Origin: Naegleria gruberi
Lineage: Eukaryota
DNA: 64,000 nucleotides
Reading direction: 5' to 3' (one strand)
Assembly (NCBI GenBank): GCA_000004985.1
Contig: GG738845.1
The notes under the pieces were generated by a model that was not told the origin of the DNA, made no database searches, and saw only the letters and a list, made by a program, of their open reading frames with translations. Both the position numbers and the translations under genes were made by a program. Shown in pieces: positions 4,930 through 50,251 of the stretch (its first letter is position 1; every line of letters starts with the position of its first letter).

Positions 4930-5337
4930 TTAACCAAAGTAATAGACTGTATTGTCAGTGCTTGAGGTATTTCTATTAGTATTATGAAGTTGGTTAACAG
5001 GTCCAAAACAATTAGGGTGTTGCAGGTTTTCAAGTATTGTCTCATCAAGATCGTTCTCATTAATAGAGCCCTCAGATTTAGTGGTTTTAACTTTGTGATG
5101 TTTTTGAGATGAGTTAATTGGAGGTAATTTAACAACAGCTGATCTCTGTGATCTAAATTCCTTCACCATCATTCTTCTTCTCAGCATGGAGTCATCATCG
5201 TATACGACTCGAGGAAGAATTCTTTGACAAGTTGAATACTCGCTCAGTGGCTTAATGGCCGTTCTGTTTTTATACTTTTCATCAAAGCAATACTCTTCCT
5301 CAATACTCTTCATCATTTGGCTTGCGAATCCTCCCAT
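4930..5337 (-). CDS. Hypothetical protein, 135 aa.
   Basis: ATG at 5337 on the minus strand; ORF only; no recognisable domain. Confidence 0.3.
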   Translation of the reverse strand: MGGFASQMMKSIEEEYCFDEKYKNRTAIKPLSEYSTCQRILPRVVYDDDSMLRRRMMVKEFRSQRSAVVKLPPINSSQKHHKVKTTKSEGSINENDLDETILENLQHPNCFGPVNQLHNTNRNTSSTDNTVYYFG

Positions 5338-5609
5338 CTTGAATGTCTAATTGTTTTTTTTTGGTTCTGAACGCATTATTCATTTTGCAGCCCATATGTT
5401 CGGTTGGTGATCCTCGAACTTAACAAAGTGGATTAAGTTGTCTTTTTTATAACAGTAAAACGCACAACCACACCAAATAAGTTTAGATCTTCTACAAGTG
5501 AGGATTGTGAGGAATTTATTTTTTTTTTTGCACAACCTCACACTTCCCTCTCCACCTTCTAGAGAGATTATTGGCCAAGAGTAGTTGTAGGGATTGTTGT
5601 TGAGAAATC

Positions 5610-7603
5610 TCAATTGAGGGGTGTTGAGGAGAGGTCTGCTCGTTTTTGGTCATCCGCAAAGGAGACTGTTTTGGACGGTGCTATATTCTTCCTAAGGTAA
5701 GGTGTGATGGAGAAATTCATTTGGGATTGATGATTCTCCAAACAGTATTGAATAAAAGTCTTTGAGAAACCTGGGAAAGACACTTCAGTTTCATTGAATA
5801 ATTGGGAGATTTTTTCACATTGTTCCTGTAAGATAACTTCAGAGTTTGGCTGGGGTGTATCAATGAATTGGTAATTACTTGCAACCGATTGTAAACTAGC
5901 CTCAACCACACTTGACAGCAACTTTTTGCTAAAAGGATCAATAGATGAGGAGATTGATAATTTTCTTTGAGATGCATAGAGATCTTTCTTTTCTCTGTCT
6001 ATCATAATTTCTCTACTCTTTTCGTACACTGGAGTAGTCTCTGGTTCTTCGGAATGAGTATGAATATCATCTTCTTCAATAACTACTTCATTAAAATTAT
6101 CAGTAAATTCTGTATCTTCTTCCTCTGCAGAAATAGAAGTTTTTTTAAATTCCACAATCTTAATCGAAGATGGCACTATCTTCATTGTTCCATACTCTGT
6201 TTCACTATCTGACGGATCTGAAATCTCATCATCTGAAGTTGAAGAAGAATCAGTATCCTTTTCCTCTTCACTAGATGTTCCACCACCTTCTCCCTTGAAG
6301 GAATTCTTATTACTGTTTAGCTCCTTTGACAAATCCGAAACTAGCTCATTAAGCTTGTGAACAGAGGTTGTCTTTTTCTTTCTTCTCATAACAGTACTTC
6401 TAAAATCCCAAAAATTATTTTCTCCTTCTCCCTCCTCAGAAGAATCAAATGAGCTGTCTGATGAATCAGTTGAACTATTAGAGTCCTTGGACTTGTCTCT
6501 CATCTCCCTCTTCTTTTCAATCAATTCTATTAGACTACTATTCTTTTTTGCTGATTTTATAAATCTATGTTTCAGTAACTCCTTTGCTGATTGTCTTTCT
6601 GAAGGATCCTTTTTCAAACATAGGGAAACAAACTCTTTGAAAGTCTTTGAAAATTTTCCCTCCAGTGTCGGTGGCTCATTCTTTGGAATCAGAAACAATA
6701 TCCTCATTGGATCATCTCCATAATATGGAGGAGATCCCTTTGCCATTTCAATAGCAGTTATACCAAGAGACCAAATATCAGCCTTTTCAGTGTAACCTGA
6801 TTGTTTAATAACCTCAGGAGCCACTATTATTCCTCAAAATAAGCGATTGTATTGAACTTGGAATACTTACTCCAAAATGGTGTTCCTACAAAAGAATGTC
6901 TCTTATTGATTGTACTCGATAGTTGTCCAGCCACACCTAAATCCGCTAATTTAACATTTCCGTCCTCGCTCAATAAAACATTTGCTGCCTTTATATCTCT
7001 ATGGATCAATCCAATAGCATGTAAATATTCCAGACCAAGCAACATTTCTCTCAATATTATTGCTATATATTTCTCATCAAATTTTCCTCCATTTGGTTTC
7101 ATAAGATCCAACACTGACCCTCCACTCAGATACTCCATCACAATTAATAATTTGGTATCCTGAACAATTGAACCATAGACTGAAACGACATAGGATGACG
7201 AACATTGCAACAGAATATGAATCTCTTTTTGTATATCCTCAATATCATCCTCTGCCTTTTCTAAATCTATTGACTTTACAGCAACTATTTGTCCAGTTTT
7301 CTTATTCCTCCTATTATCAGAATATTAAAATGTCACCAAGATCCAAATGACATGAACATACATTTTGTACACTTCTCCAAAAGATCCCTTTCCAACTCGT
7401 TCCAATTTTTCATAATCGGAGCTATTTGCAGAGAAAGGTGCCTCTGCCTCTCTGAAATGATGATGAATATTTGATGATCCTCCTATGCTACCAACATTCG
7501 AAGAGTTAGAAGAGACTGATGAAACAGAATCTAAGGAGGTTAAACTGTTGGCCACAATACTTGAAATTGGTATTCCTTCAGAGACAAATGTTTGAGGTGG
7601 CAT
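5610..7603 (-). CDS. STE20/GCK-III family Ser/Thr kinase (MST3/STK24/STK25-like). Exons 7362..7603, 6871..7310 and 5610..6823.
   Basis: [10 protein letters not shown] in exon 1. Exon 2 reads [30 protein letters not shown]...MEYLSGGS...[11 protein letters not shown]...DLGVAGQL...FVGTPFW. Exon 3 starts (M)[10 protein letters not shown]...[11 protein letters not shown]. Introns are 51 nt (GTATGT..AATAG) and 47 nt (GTAAGT..AATAG). The C-terminal tail is long and acidic/Ser-rich. Confidence 0.75.
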
Positions 7604-44342: not shown

Positions 44343-45059
44343 ATGCTCTCAGCAAGGAAAAAAGTTTCAGAAAATCCAGTGGATGTTCTTGGCAATAATC
44401 ATACATATGGCAAAAAGGTTGTTCCTGATGTTGAAGGGGCTCTCAAAGTAGTGCTTTCGTGGAAGGAAAATCAACCTCATAGAGATGAAACACCAGATAG
44501 AGATTTTAAGAAATTAAATGTGCTTAGTTTAAAGGAAAAACAAGTGTCTTCCTCTCAAATTTCGAACTTTAGAAAAAGTCACGATGCAAGAATAACCTCC
44601 CACAAGAAGGAAAAGAAAGCAGATCTTCTCCCTTCGGATGTAGATCCAAGCTTTGCTTATGGACATAGGAATGTTTTTGACCAAAAAGCTAAAGATTTGA
44701 TGGAACATCGATTCGCAGAGGAATGGGCAAAGAAAAAGGAAGAAACTGATCGTAGATTTAAGGAAGACAAAAAGCAAGAAATGTTATCATCTGTAAATAC
44801 AAGAGCAAAGTTGGATATTATGAAACGATCAGAGGATGCCAAAATCAAATTAACCCCCAGAGAGGACGATAGTTCCAATCAATTCAAAATGACAAAATTC
44901 AAAAATGTTCCTTCAAAAGTTGATTGTAAGAGAGATAGTCATCCTGGATATTCATTTAACAACAATGATACCTCCAATGGAGGTATTGATAATCAACACT
45001 ACAACAACCACAACAATCGCCATAGAACTGAATACACAATACACGTTGACCACGATTAA
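44343..45059 (+). CDS. Hypothetical protein, 238 aa.
   Basis: ATG at 44343; single ORF; basic, with an N/H-rich tail; no family recognised. Confidence 0.35.
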   Translation: MLSARKKVSENPVDVLGNNHTYGKKVVPDVEGALKVVLSWKENQPHRDETPDRDFKKLNVLSLKEKQVSSSQISNFRKSHDARITSHKKEKKADLLPSDVDPSFAYGHRNVFDQKAKDLMEHRFAEEWAKKKEETDRRFKEDKKQEMLSSVNTRAKLDIMKRSEDAKIKLTPREDDSSNQFKMTKFKNVPSKVDCKRDSHPGYSFNNNDTSNGGIDNQHYNNHNNRHRTEYTIHVDHD

Positions 45060-45644
45060 TAAATATTTTCTAAATAGTAATATTTTAAATGTATATATTT
45101 TAAATATTGAGGAACATGAAGAGCTCAATTAAGAGTGCCATTTCGGCGGGGTAACTTTCGGTATAATACAGTAAGGATTAGAATCTAAAAAATCTTATGT
45201 TTCCATCCACTACAGCAGCTGATTCTGAGGTTATTCATGTGGTCTCTAATAGTGCATCTCAACAGAAGGAATCATCATCTGAATCACCCTTAGTAGCATT
45301 CTTTGTTTCATTGTGAAATAGAGTAATCAAATCGTACCACACATGTCAGATCACAAAGCTCGTCCCAAGAGAATCACATCAAATGATTGGGATTTTGGTA
45401 AGTCCAGAAGTTGATCACAACCATCTCAGCAGTGGCATACCCAAATTAAGCATCACTACGAAATGGATTGTTCAATCATTGAATTATTCAACAGAAATGA
45501 GACCCTCAAAGGATCAACAAGATGTTTAACTGAGTAGAAATGATATACATTATTTATGTCAAAAGGTTGTCTTATCAATATCCCGCCAATTTTAAAATTG
45601 AATTAAAAAATTACAGTTCAAACCAATCACAACATCTTTAAAAA

Positions 45645-47809
45645 ATGAATGAATCCCTAAATTTGAGCAGTATCATAAATGAGGAGTCGATTAATAACTC
45701 TAACAATGAATATCTAAGAAAGAGTTCAGATAGTGAAGAGGATATTTCCAAGACTGTAGAGGAACATTATAATCACATTCATGTTTGCGTACGAGTCTCT
45801 CCTGTACCAGGTATGTAGATTTCTCTAGTATCATTCATGTTTTATTGAATCAAATAGCTGAGGAAGCGAGTGCTAATGCTCAAAATATTGTTGAAATATC
45901 GGATGTAAACAAGTTGATTGCCTATCACCCTGAAAGTAGAGAGGGTTTGCTCTATTCATTTGACAATTGTTTTGATTCAGAAACAACAAACAACACAATC
46001 TTTGAGAGTGTTTGTGTACCAGTATTGAATGCCGTGATTGAGGGTTATAATGGAACTATTATTTCCTATGGATCTTCTCGAACAGGAAAAACTGAAATGA
46101 TGATTGGAAATGAAAGAGAGGAAGGAATTGTTGATTTGACATTCAGAGAAGGCTATTCCTATCTCTCTTCAGTTTCTGACAAGGTGGATTATAGTATTTC
46201 TTTTTCTTTCTGGGAAATGAGTAATGATTCGATTTTGGATTTACTTGATTTGAATGAGGGGAAAGAGCTCAAATTAAAAAGAAGTGGAAAGGAAGGGGTA
46301 TTTATCACAAATCTATCTGAACATCAAGTTGACAGTTGGGAGCATCTTCAATCACTAATTGATAATGGTATAAGAAGAAGCCAACAATTGACTGCTCAAA
46401 GAAAAATTAGGTTGCACTCCTTTATGAGATTAAGGCTCACAAGAAACAATTACGATCACCCAGAAGAGGATGTCTCATCTTCTTTTATGTTTGTAAACTT
46501 GAAGGGTACCGAAAGAATTGGTAAAATTGGAGCAAAGGGAGATCATATGAAGGAAGGAGCAAGTTTAAACATGAGTATGATTGCTTTCGGTAACGCAATT
46601 CACAATGTAGTCAACCACACACGAGTTAAAAAGGATACAGCTATCAATATTAACAGTTTATTTGGAGACTCTCAAGTAACTGCCATGATGAGCGATTCTC
46701 TTGGTGGAAAGAGTGCCACAGTAATTATTGGATCTATTTCTCAAACGGAATTCCACTATCTTGAAACAATGGAAGTTTTGGAAAATCTCAGAATTGCAAG
46801 ACACATCCTCTCAAAACCTGTAAAACAAGTCTTGAACTCTAAAATCAAAAAGCTCTATAATAAGATTAAAAAACTCGAAACAAGCATTCCAGAAGATAAA
46901 CTAGCCCCTGGCCATCCCCCAACTGAACAGCAAGAGGAATTGGAATACTACAAGAGATTATACAGGAAATACCTTGATGGATTGGTAGATGACGAAGATT
47001 TGGACAAACCAATGGAAACAAATCCTTCTCTTCAAGATATTCCTGAATTGGAATTATCAAAAACGGATCAATTATGGAAACAAAATGATGCCAAGAGTCA
47101 GAGACATGGTATTCGTGCCACAGTTTATAAACCCTCATCACTTCAAGGGAAACCAAAGGAAACTTACAAAGGACAATGGAAAGGTCATCAAAAACATGGC
47201 TACGGAGAGGTTGATAATGAAAAGGTAAATTATAAAGGTGGTTGGGCAAATGATAAAAAGCATGGTAAGGGATCCCTATATTCAAAGGAAAAAAACAGAA
47301 GAGTATTTCTGGGAGAATTCCAAAACGATAAGAAGCATGGAAAGGGTGTATTTTATTATGAAAATGGAGAAATTTATGACGGTGAATGGAAGGACGACAA
47401 AAGGTGTGGCTATGGAGTCATGTACTATCTTGATGGAACGAAATATGAAGGAGAATGGGAAAATGATATGAGAGGAGGTAATGGAGCCTGTGTGGAAAAG
47501 AATGGAGATAGATTCGAAGGTTCCTTCCTGAATGGATTGAAGCATGGTCCAGGAGTGTATTACTATATCACACAAGGTCAAAAGTATGTTGGGGAATGGT
47601 TTAAAGGTGTTGCAAAGTGTGGTCAACTATATTCAGATATTGATTATACAGAAGAAGGAATGGACAGTTTTGAGAGCTCAACAAAAATTCCAGAAAATCA
47701 ACTGCAAGATAGAATGAAAGTTATTGAAGATGCAGTCACATCTGTTCGTATTCAAATGCAACAAGAACATTTACTCCCTTCTGCAATAAGAGAAAATATT
47801 TACGAGTGA
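45645..47809 (+). CDS. Kinesin-like (degenerate motor) domain fused to about 7 C-terminal MORN repeats. Exons 45645..45810 and 45858..47809, about 705 aa.
   Basis: Exon 1 ends IHVCVRVSPVP (kinesin beta1-like). The motor-like region has a P-loop GSSRTGKT (canonical GQTxSGKT), a switch-I-like RKIRLHSF and a switch-II-like FVNLKGTERIGKIGAKGDHMKEGASLNMSMIAFGNAIHNVV (canonical DLAGSE). Then YKGQWKGHQKHGYGEV, YKGGWANDKKHGKGSLY, GEFQNDKKHGKGVFYYENGEIYDGEWKDDKRCGYGVMYYLDGTKYEGEWENDMRGGNG are MORN units. Intron 47 nt. Confidence 0.6.
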
Positions 47810-47856: not shown

Positions 47857-48219
47857 ATGTCTGCAACCACCGAAAACAAAGTCACTTTCAAGATTACTTT
47901 AACATCACACCCAAAGCAACCTTTTAGAACGTATGTAAATAAATGATTGACCATTTCCGATCATTGAATTAATCATCACACATATTGTAACAATTAATAA
48001 TAACAATCAAACGGGATTAGAATCAAGGTTCCTGAAAGTGCACCATTCACTGCTGTTTTGAAGTATGCTGCTGAAGAATTCCAAATTTCTGCTGAAACTA
48101 GTGCAATTCTCTCCAATGATGGTATCGGTATTAATCCTAGTCAAACTGCAGGAAACGTTTGGCTCAAGTATGGTACAGATTTACGTATTATTCCAAGAGA
48201 CAAAGTCGGTGGATTTTAA
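47857..48219 (+). CDS. UFM1: Ubiquitin-fold modifier 1 (UFM1). Exons 47857..47930 and 48021..48219, intron 90 nt.
   Basis: [24 protein letters not shown](T)[65 protein letters not shown] is near-identical in pattern to metazoan UFM1, including the VG-xx C-terminus. Confidence 0.8.
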
Positions 48220-48871: not shown

Positions 48872-50251
48872 ATGACTACTCCTAACAACAATGGAGGAGT
48901 ATCCATGAATCTGTCCACAACATTAGATTCAAACACGCCTCCACTACCTCCTCCAATGCAAGTTGGAATGTCATCAAGTCCTAGTTTAGGTTTCAATCCA
49001 ACACCGGCTTCAATGATTCCACACCATCACCACCATCAATATCAACAACAGCAACATCCTAATACATACATGATGAATTCACCTTCTTCTTCTTCTCACA
49101 CAATTCTGCCATTTGGACCAACACCTACAATGGCAAGCCAATCTCAACAATCTTTCCCTTCACTAATTTCTCCCATCTCGAATCCATTTCCTTCCATCCA
49201 TACCTCTATTCCACCAACACATTTTCTATCCATGAATATGGCTTCACAGCCATCTCTTGCCACAACAGGTTTGGACAAAAGACGAAGAAATCCCTCCTCC
49301 AAAAGAAGTTTGGAAGAAGAAGATGAGGAAGACAATCAAAACAATATTGAAATTGATGATTCGGGTGACCAAGAAGAGCCTCCAACAACAAGAGCAAAAC
49401 CAATCGAATTAAAATTACAACATCAACAACAACCAAAATTCGTGGACAATAATGCAAAAGGATGTAATTGTAAAAAAACTGGTTGTTTAAAACGATATTG
49501 TGAATGCTTTCAGAACAATAAGAGATGTACCATAAAATGTCGTTGTCAGGGTTGCAAAAACTATCATGAATGTCCTGATTTACATAGAGTTTTGGAAAAA
49601 CAAACAAAATCTGGAGCAGGACCACAAACTTCAACTAGTGCAACACAAAGAAAGACTCAAAAAAGAAAAACCAATCTGGTTTCGCAAGCTCCACCTAGCT
49701 CTTCAAATAATACCACTCAATCAAGACCGCCAATTGGAAGTCCTTCAATATTAGGTGGAGGTATTGTTATGGCTCATGGAAGTGTGTCACAATTCAGTCC
49801 CTTAACGTTTACTAACCCACAAATTGCTTCATCTCTTCATCAAAATTCATTAAGCTGTATTTATGGGGAGGAAAAGATTGTGGAACTTTGTAAAAAACTA
49901 GTATTGGCTGCTATTCAACAAGAACAGGTCTTTAAGGATGAATGGAAACAAGATAATTCTGCACCAAAAACACCGAAATCAGCTAGAAAAGAGGGTAATC
50001 AACAAGTTAACAACTTTTTACTTTGTGACGAGGATGACATGCACCAAGCAGCTCAACCACAGACAAGTTCTAACAGAAAAGTTTATCCAAAAGGATTTGA
50101 GAATGCTCTTGGAATATCTTTGAATGGACGTATCACATCAGAGTTTAAACATTTCCTCTTATCAGGAGTGCAAACATTGAAATCCCAACAACAAGCAACC
50201 GAAACTCAAAACATTCTAAATAATAGCATGAATGGTATGCAGTATCAATAG
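48872..50251 (+). CDS. CXC (tesmin/TSO1-like CRC) domain DNA-binding protein.
   Basis: AKGCNCKKTGCLKRYCECFQNNKRCTIKCRCQGCKNY is a CXC cysteine-rich domain. Flanks are Pro/Ser/His-rich. Confidence 0.5.
   Translation: MTTPNNNGGVSMNLSTTLDSNTPPLPPPMQVGMSSSPSLGFNPTPASMIPHHHHHQYQQQQHPNTYMMNSPSSSSHTILPFGPTPTMASQSQQSFPSLISPISNPFPSIHTSIPPTHFLSMNMASQPSLATTGLDKRRRNPSSKRSLEEEDEEDNQNNIEIDDSGDQEEPPTTRAKPIELKLQHQQQPKFVDNNAKGCNCKKTGCLKRYCECFQNNKRCTIKCRCQGCKNYHECPDLHRVLEKQTKSGAGPQTSTSATQRKTQKRKTNLVSQAPPSSSNNTTQSRPPIGSPSILGGGIVMAHGSVSQFSPLTFTNPQIASSLHQNSLSCIYGEEKIVELCKKLVLAAIQQEQVFKDEWKQDNSAPKTPKSARKEGNQQVNNFLLCDEDDMHQAAQPQTSSNRKVYPKGFENALGISLNGRITSEFKHFLLSGVQTLKSQQQATETQNILNNSMNGMQYQ

Follow-up and report, generated by a model that had tools for sequence, protein, structure and literature searches.

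The question raised by this locus is what a kinesin-like head with substituted catalytic motifs does when it is joined, in a single polypeptide, to an array of MORN repeats. The gene in question occupies 45645..47809 on the plus strand of the window, by which we mean the whole stretch of 64,000 nucleotides analysed from Naegleria gruberi (contig GG738845.1 of assembly GCA_000004985.1; 33% G+C), and its spliced coding sequence of 2118 nt specifies a protein of 705 aa, here called Kinesin-MORN. An earlier note, made from the letters of this DNA alone, had failed to recognise the architecture among characterised kinesin families and had suggested that it could be a microtubule-binding scaffold of the flagellar or cortical cytoskeleton, its MORN repeats being typical of radial-spoke and junctional proteins. 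The first statement has to be withdrawn: the architecture already has a name in the trypanosomatids, where it has been localised, knocked out with a phenotype and placed in structures, and the Naegleria gene too is present in the databases, albeit mis-modelled. The second agrees well with the trypanosomatid protein, which is axonemal, forms part of models of the 96-nm repeat and is assigned to radial spoke 2 (RS2), and with the flagellate-enriched expression of the Naegleria gene. In our assessment, the latter is quite probably the orthologue of trypanosomatid Kinesin-MORN, that is, an axonemal structural protein of the RS2 base which is present once per 96-nm repeat. The case for orthology is made by the domain architecture, by derived motifs common to both and by a match over the full length, rather than by a phylogeny of the motor domain.

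A phmmer search of all PDB sequences recovered as the top match chain 9e5c_4y (718 aa; E = 6.3e-73; query residues 42-653 against chain residues 7-624), followed by 9y6s_8a (717 aa, deposited as 'Kinesin-MORN'; E = 2.5e-65), with plain kinesin motors coming next at about 1e-40. The two entries are the 96-nm doublet repeats of Trypanosoma brucei (9E5C) and Leishmania tarentolae (9Y6S), and chain 4y of the former was deposited under the name 'MORN repeat-containing protein 3'. A Foldseek search of the PDB with an AlphaFold2 (AF2) model of the 705-aa protein, which was built from a 10-sequence alignment, returned the same chains at the top, with 686-688 aligned columns for both: 9e5c_4y with E = 1.9e-51, 688 columns and a query-normalised template-modelling score (TMq) of 0.62, and 9y6s_8a with E = 3.8e-50 and TMq 0.66. 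As the motor-only matches reach a TMq of only about 0.44, both domains must superpose together on the trypanosomatid chains, which align end to end with the Naegleria protein in fold (TM 0.62-0.74). The proteins are also of comparable length (717-718 aa in trypanosomatids versus 705 aa in Naegleria) and share the same order of parts, namely a kinesin-like head, a linker with the motif PxTExEE and a MORN3-like module. They further have in common two derived motifs, xLKG in switch II and RWH or RLH in switch I. Against this background of likeness, their sequence identity is only about 24-26%, the first residue of switch II is Asn in Naegleria as opposed to His in Euglenozoa, and the head scores 185 bits against the kinesin profile in Naegleria as against about 100 in T. 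vivax, the alpha4 and L12 elements being more canonical in the former. The flagellar association is seen as axonemal location in T. brucei and Leishmania and as flagellate-stage expression in Naegleria.

The trypanosomatid genes are Tb927.10.14570 in T. brucei, LmxM.31.0420 in L. mexicana and LtaP32.0450 in L. tarentolae. In T. brucei, kinesin-MORN::eYFP labels the 9+2 axoneme (PMC5540225); this imaging paper was the sole find of a literature search on kinesin, MORN and FAP207 in trypanosomes, the PDB code and the gene ID. Table S1 of the Leishmania study lists Kinesin-MORN under RS2 together with CFAP206, RSP8 and RSP15, with a periodicity of 96 nm and the entry 'appears in model: Yes'; a separate CFAP207 is absent from that table. 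The L. mexicana deletion mutant in the same study swam at 4.44 µm/s, as compared with about 7 to 9.9 µm/s for mutants scored normal; it was rated slow in both growth and motility, and its flagella were of normal length. Kinesin-MORN was not mentioned in the Leishmania/Crithidia 48-nm paper, and the reviews and the central-apparatus preprint held nothing relevant to it.

The structure of the gene is as follows:

45645..45810, plus strand: exon 1, with the ATG at 45645, encoding Met1-Pro55 (55 codons) and the first base of Ala56; it supplies a low-complexity N-terminal stretch and, from the kinesin-like domain, strand beta1 carrying the N1 motif HIHVCVRVSPVP.
45811..45857, plus strand: intron of 47 nt in phase 1, GTATGT...ATAG.
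45858..47809, plus strand: exon 2, 1952 nt in one unbroken open reading frame (ORF) with the TGA stop at 47807-47809; it supplies the remaining motor-like domain, the linker, the MORN3-like module and the C-terminal helix.

If unspliced, the frame of exon 1 runs into a stop at 45816-45818 in the ORF list. Exon 1 encodes the stretch IHVCVRVSPVP and contributes to the kinesin domain by three measures: the Pfam Kinesin match, which spans the splice junction, begins at residue 50, the Microtub_bd match begins at residue 34, and the AF2 model places a strand at residues 46-51 with a predicted local distance difference test score (pLDDT) of about 90. The 710-aa orthologue in N. lovaniensis starts in a manner resembling the exon-1 model, and its intron falls at the same codon and in the same phase, after the PVP codons (the intron-bearing stretch lies at about 5190..5270 of its locus). 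The Willaertia magna orthologue is intronless and reads straight across the junction in a single ORF (5001..7034 of its locus), and orthologue sequences taken from transcriptomes, of Percolomonas and others in the MMETSP data, are colinear and unbroken there. Taken together, the shared intron, the intronless Willaertia gene and the continuous transcriptome sequences support the splice model, and the intron that the earlier note had proposed at this position thus stands. The same note had raised the prospect that the kinesin and MORN parts might prove to be separate genes; this is ruled out by the presence of both domains in the single unbroken ORF of exon 2. That exon 1 might belong elsewhere was likewise rejected on account of the intron being kept in N. 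lovaniensis and absent at the junction in Willaertia.

The public gene model departs from this structure. The product of exon 2 matches XP_002683191.1/D2UYB8, annotated simply as 'kinesin', with 100% identity, but that model (XP_002683191, 863 aa) joins the upstream ORF at 44343..45059, which encodes CFAP77, to exon 2 and omits exon 1. Because exon 1 is skipped, it lacks motor strand beta1. It is a chimera that wrongly merges two separate genes, CFAP77 and Kinesin-MORN. The converse proposition, that CFAP77 is a part of the Kinesin-MORN gene, was dismissed since CFAP77 has its own stop at 45057-45059 and no orthologue has CFAP77 attached. A tblastn search did not find CFAP77 within 5 kb of the Kinesin-MORN genes of N. 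lovaniensis or Willaertia.

The kinesin-like head presents the following features, its catalytic motifs having been read from HMMER alignments to Giardia kinesin-2 (2vvg_A) and Plasmodium kinesin-8B:

45774..46807 (intron included), plus strand: kinesin-like motor domain, residues 44-372, from beta1 to alpha6.
46070..46093, plus strand: P-loop, residues 127-134, GSSRTGKT, aligned to faYGQTGAGKT of Giardia kinesin-2.
46403..46417, plus strand: switch I equivalent, residues 238-242, KIRLH in place of SSRSH, with the Arg and His kept and both serines gone.
46496..46513, plus strand: switch II equivalent, residues 269-274, NLKGTE in place of DLAGSE.

That the N-terminal part adopts a kinesin motor fold, as had been supposed from the order of its motifs, is borne out by profile, model and structure search alike. 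Pfam Kinesin (PF00225) matches residues 50-366 over profile positions 1-321 of 327 with an E-value of 2e-54 and 185.3 bits, against a cutoff of 29.3, and Pfam Microtub_bd (PF16796) matches at 1.4e-14; neither these nor the Pfam MORN matches described below are due to chance. The AF2 model has a mean pLDDT of 77, with both the motor and the MORN domains at about 90 (about 85-94 across the motor); the parts of low confidence are the N-terminus, L11 (residues 275-280), a part of the linker (443-487) and residues 653-674. Numerous kinesin motor structures match this model in Foldseek with TM values, normalised to the target, of 0.8-0.89.

The motif substitutions noted at the outset were likewise confirmed. 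Relative to the kinesin consensus GQTxxGK[ST], the P-loop retains an intact Walker A GxxxxGKT but has Ser-Ser for the kinesin-specific Gln-Thr. In switch II, Asn stands in for Asp and Lys for Ala, the Gly and Glu being retained, so that the sequence no longer conforms to DxxGxE. In the L12/alpha5 region YRDSKLTRLL has become FGDSQVTAMM with the loss of several basic residues that contact microtubules; the role of these residues in microtubule contact is established from kinesin-1 mutagenesis. Compared with the canonical N-terminal kinesins, among which Giardia kinesin-2 (2VVG), Plasmodium kinesin-8B (7Z2A) and KIF18A are the best motor-only matches, the Naegleria head shares the motor fold, the Walker A GxxxxGKT, the switch II Gly and Glu, the switch I Arg and His and the alpha4 consensus. 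It differs in having GSS, KIRLH and NLKGTE where these have GQT, SSRSH and DLAGSE, in being without the basic L12/alpha5 residues, and in bearing a MORN3 module as its tail rather than a coiled-coil stalk. The missing switch I serines and the missing Asp of switch II predict impaired hydrolysis, and the label 'ATPase-impaired' that had been given to the protein rests on this motif loss. Nucleotide binding may well persist, given that the Walker A motif is intact and conserved.

The remainder of the protein is made up as follows:

46808..47059, plus strand: neck-like segment and linker, residues 373-456, with two helices in the predicted model and the motif LAPGHPPTEQQEEL, which is conserved in the family.
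47060..47743, plus strand: MORN3/CFAP207-like module, residues 457-684, with the pre-MORN motif LWKQNDAKSQRHGIRATVY N-terminal to the repeats.
47165..47554, plus strand: six MORN repeats, residues 492-621, matching [YF]xGx[WF]x5-6GxG in a regular-expression count.
47585..47623, plus strand: degenerate seventh repeat, residues 632-644, YVGEWFKGVAKCG, ending in AKCG and followed by the C-terminal helix.

The two linker helices occupy residues 384-398 and 412-428 of the AF2 model, and Pro409 and Glu415 within the linker are invariant across the family alignment. Six clear repeats and a degenerate seventh agree with the original count of about seven; Pfam MORN (PF02493) detects six stretches at 1.9e-24, and the AF2 model renders the module as an array of beta-hairpins with a pLDDT of about 90. 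The module aligns with residues 9-231 of the 240 of human MORN3 (8j07_c1; E = 1.4e-34), with residues 19-221 of the 256 of Chlamydomonas FAP207 (7jts_m) and also with 9fqr_MS. It shares with MORN3/FAP207 the flank LWKxxDxKxQRxGxRxxVY, the seven repeats, the AKCG cap and the IPE..L.D helix, features of sequence which mark the C-terminal half as a MORN3/CFAP207 module rather than a generic MORN array. MORN3/FAP207 is a standalone protein of about 240-256 aa without a kinesin domain, whereas the Naegleria module forms the C-terminal third of a 705-aa fusion. FAP207 is a component of the bases of radial spoke 1 (RS1) and RS2, where it docks inner-arm dynein c (IDAc) through p28 (PMC12399478). It is modelled at both spokes, as opposed to the Leishmania Kinesin-MORN, which is listed as specific to RS2; the IDAc of Leishmania, unlike that of Chlamydomonas, is not associated with RS2 (Leishmania study).

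How widely this fusion is distributed was addressed by an exhaustive HMMER search with the heterolobosean alignment against 1.84 billion cluster representatives. The full-length fusions recovered in a single stretch that could be named all belong to Discoba, although lower-scoring ones from elsewhere could be masked in this search by the flood of multi-MORN proteins. The same fusion, which the earlier note had proposed to seek in other flagellated lineages, was found in Heterolobosea (Pharyngomonas, in addition to Naegleria, Willaertia and Percolomonas from a first homologue search), Euglenozoa (Eutreptiella and Trypanosoma vivax) and Jakobida (Stygiella and Andalucia), and four more matches come from contigs of metagenomes or Logan. 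Heteroloboseans were all that a second, word-indexed search seeded with the family alignment brought up. A beetle match proved to be a tandem kinesin devoid of MORN repeats and was discarded as a fusion.

A 13-sequence family alignment, which includes T. vivax, Eutreptiella, Stygiella and the heteroloboseans, shows which of the altered residues are characteristic of the family as a whole. Lys271 of the switch II xLKG motif (codon 46502..46504) is invariant from jakobids to trypanosomes, as is His242 of switch I (both 13/13); Arg-[Trp/Leu]-His occurs in most members, and the two serines of switch I in none of the thirteen. The Walker A GK[TS] is retained in all but one (12/13). Switch II opens with Asn in most heteroloboseans, with His in the euglenozoans as well as Pharyngomonas, and with Asp in the jakobids; hence, at the gamma-phosphate-sensing loop, this preceding Asp position varies while the Lys stays fixed. 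The linker motif LAxGxPxTExEE and the flanks before and after the MORN3 repeats are also conserved across the family. These shared derived characters of sequence support a single origin of the discobid kinesin-MORN3 fusion. In the Andalucia godoyi protein ANDGO_03307 the linker and the MORN3-like module are kept, while the kinesin part has decayed to 21 bits, short of the Pfam cutoff, and has its P-loop deleted; the database name of this protein, 'Phosphatidylinositol 4-phosphate 5-kinase 6', looks wrong. Judging from this sequence, at least one lineage seems able to dispense with nucleotide binding by the head.

With regard to expression, JGI 56509, which corresponds to XP_002683191.1, appears as 'kinesin family 7' in Table S1 of Velle et al. 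2022 (PMC9036621), with a log2 fold change of -8.585 for amoebae versus flagellates, making it the second most flagellate-enriched of the 35 kinesins in that part of the table. The 'kinesin-7' label is not supported by the motor-domain scores: CENP-E motors score 118 bits against this domain versus 145 for kinesin-2, and the HMMER comparison with PDB motors showed no family-diagnostic affinity.

We propose that in the flagella of Naegleria one copy of Kinesin-MORN would sit at the RS2 base in every 96-nm repeat. Its C-terminal MORN sheet would do the job of MORN3/FAP207, docking the base of the spoke stalk and its neighbours on the A-tubule. The kinesin-like head, which has lost the two serines of switch I and the aspartate of switch II, would no longer cycle and could serve at the spoke base as an anchor or adaptor that is fixed in a rigor-like manner; it may still hold nucleotide in view of the conserved GxxxxGKT. 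By analogy with the Leishmania knockout, loss of the protein would be expected to slow beating, with flagella still being assembled. Several points weigh against this picture. The Arg of YRDSK is a Gly and that of LTRLL an Ala, so several basic residues of the microtubule face are replaced, and the binding partner of the head may not be the microtubule lattice. The conserved Walker A is compatible with residual nucleotide turnover. Taken alone, the motor domain is slightly closer by score to kinesin-2 and kinesin-8 motors (145-139 bits) than to the fast-evolving trypanosomatid chains (126-122 bits). The published expression value refers to the chimeric CFAP77 plus Kinesin-MORN model and is hence not gene-specific.

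Some of these points feed alternative accounts. The conserved and intact Walker A (12/13 members), together with the kinesin fold predicted at high confidence, the retention of the switch II Gly and Glu and of the switch I Arg (the salt-bridge pair), and a neck-linker-like segment after alpha6, would suit a kinesin motor that is active, if unusual, and moves along microtubules of the axoneme or the cytoplasm, with its MORN array serving as an adaptor for cargo or membrane. We regard this as very unlikely: no member has either switch I serine, the Asp of switch II is missing as well from the heterolobosean members and the named euglenozoan ones, the Andalucia orthologue has no P-loop and is yet still fused, the AF2 model has no evident coiled-coil stalk for dimerisation beyond two short helices, and the orthologue is a single fixed chain per 96-nm repeat in two cryo-EM models. 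Less improbable, though still unlikely, is an arrangement in which the location at the spoke base holds and the head acts not as a lattice binder but as a protein-protein adaptor, with CFAP206, CCDC39/40 or an inner-arm dynein among its possible partners, or as a nucleotide-sensing regulator. The partial replacement of the microtubule residues of L12/alpha5 and alpha4 (the K252 and K256 equivalents are Ala and Met in N. gruberi) speaks for it, as do the persistence of the P-loop despite the loss of catalytic residues and the differing placement of IDAc, which is docked by FAP207 in Chlamydomonas and is not RS2-associated in Leishmania, pointing to an RS2 base remodelled in this lineage. Set against these are the good matches that the Pfam Microtub_bd and Kinesin profiles still give and the well-conserved alpha4 (EGASLNxSxxAFGNAIHNV) in heteroloboseans.

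The location itself could also be called into question, in that the Naegleria protein might act away from the spoke base, at the basal bodies, the rootlets or the transient cortical microtubules of the amoeba-to-flagellate transition. Induction in the flagellate stage would fit any structure built de novo at that time and not the axoneme alone, and the literature search found no localisation data for Naegleria; however, the protein is orthologous over its whole length to an axonemal RS2 protein and the MORN3/FAP207-specific flanks are conserved across Discoba, which leaves this account extremely improbable in our view. A bolder reading, to which we grant just a slim chance, would treat the fusion as a Discoba-wide synapomorphy: an ancestral MORN3/CFAP207 would have captured a kinesin head that became nucleotide-binding and non-hydrolysing, with the invariant switch II Lys substituting for contacts to Mg2+ and the gamma-phosphate, and that operates as an ATP/ADP sensor or a rigor clamp, remodelling the RS2 base and its coupling to inner-arm dynein. 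If true, Kinesin-MORN would be a pseudo-motor serving as an axonemal regulator.

These observations extend the fusion of kinesin and MORN3, hitherto discussed for trypanosomatids, to a free-living heterolobosean, and its occurrence in each of the three major lineages of discobids suggests that the remodelling of the RS2 base is ancient. The synchronous de novo assembly of flagella in Naegleria offers a system for studying a catalytically altered kinesin head in the axoneme. The correction of the gene model, by splitting CFAP77 from Kinesin-MORN, also removes a chimera that confounds both the published expression value and the 'kinesin-7' label. What is added here, modestly, is the Naegleria orthology, an apparently Discoba-wide range with common changes in the switches, and the corrected gene model, rather than a new kind of protein.

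The genes around Kinesin-MORN and the spacer before it are the following:

44343..45059, plus strand: CFAP77, the ORF directly upstream, coding for an axonemal outer-junction protein (Pfam PF14825, 2.5e-23).
45060..45644: AT-rich spacer of 585 bp between the CFAP77 stop and the Kinesin-MORN ATG, with ORFs of at most 48 aa on either strand.
47857..48219, plus strand: Ufm1, the downstream gene, with one short intron (Pfam PF03671, 5.2e-41 with a hand-spliced translation).
48872..50251, plus strand: ORF of 459 aa with His/Gln-rich low-complexity sequence and a cysteine-rich stretch.

The spacer presumably holds the promoter of a gene that is induced several-hundred-fold in flagellate differentiation. 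The order of Kinesin-MORN followed by Ufm1 is kept in N. lovaniensis and not in Willaertia. In the last of these ORFs, the cysteine-rich stretch resembles, by eye, a CXC/tesmin-type domain.

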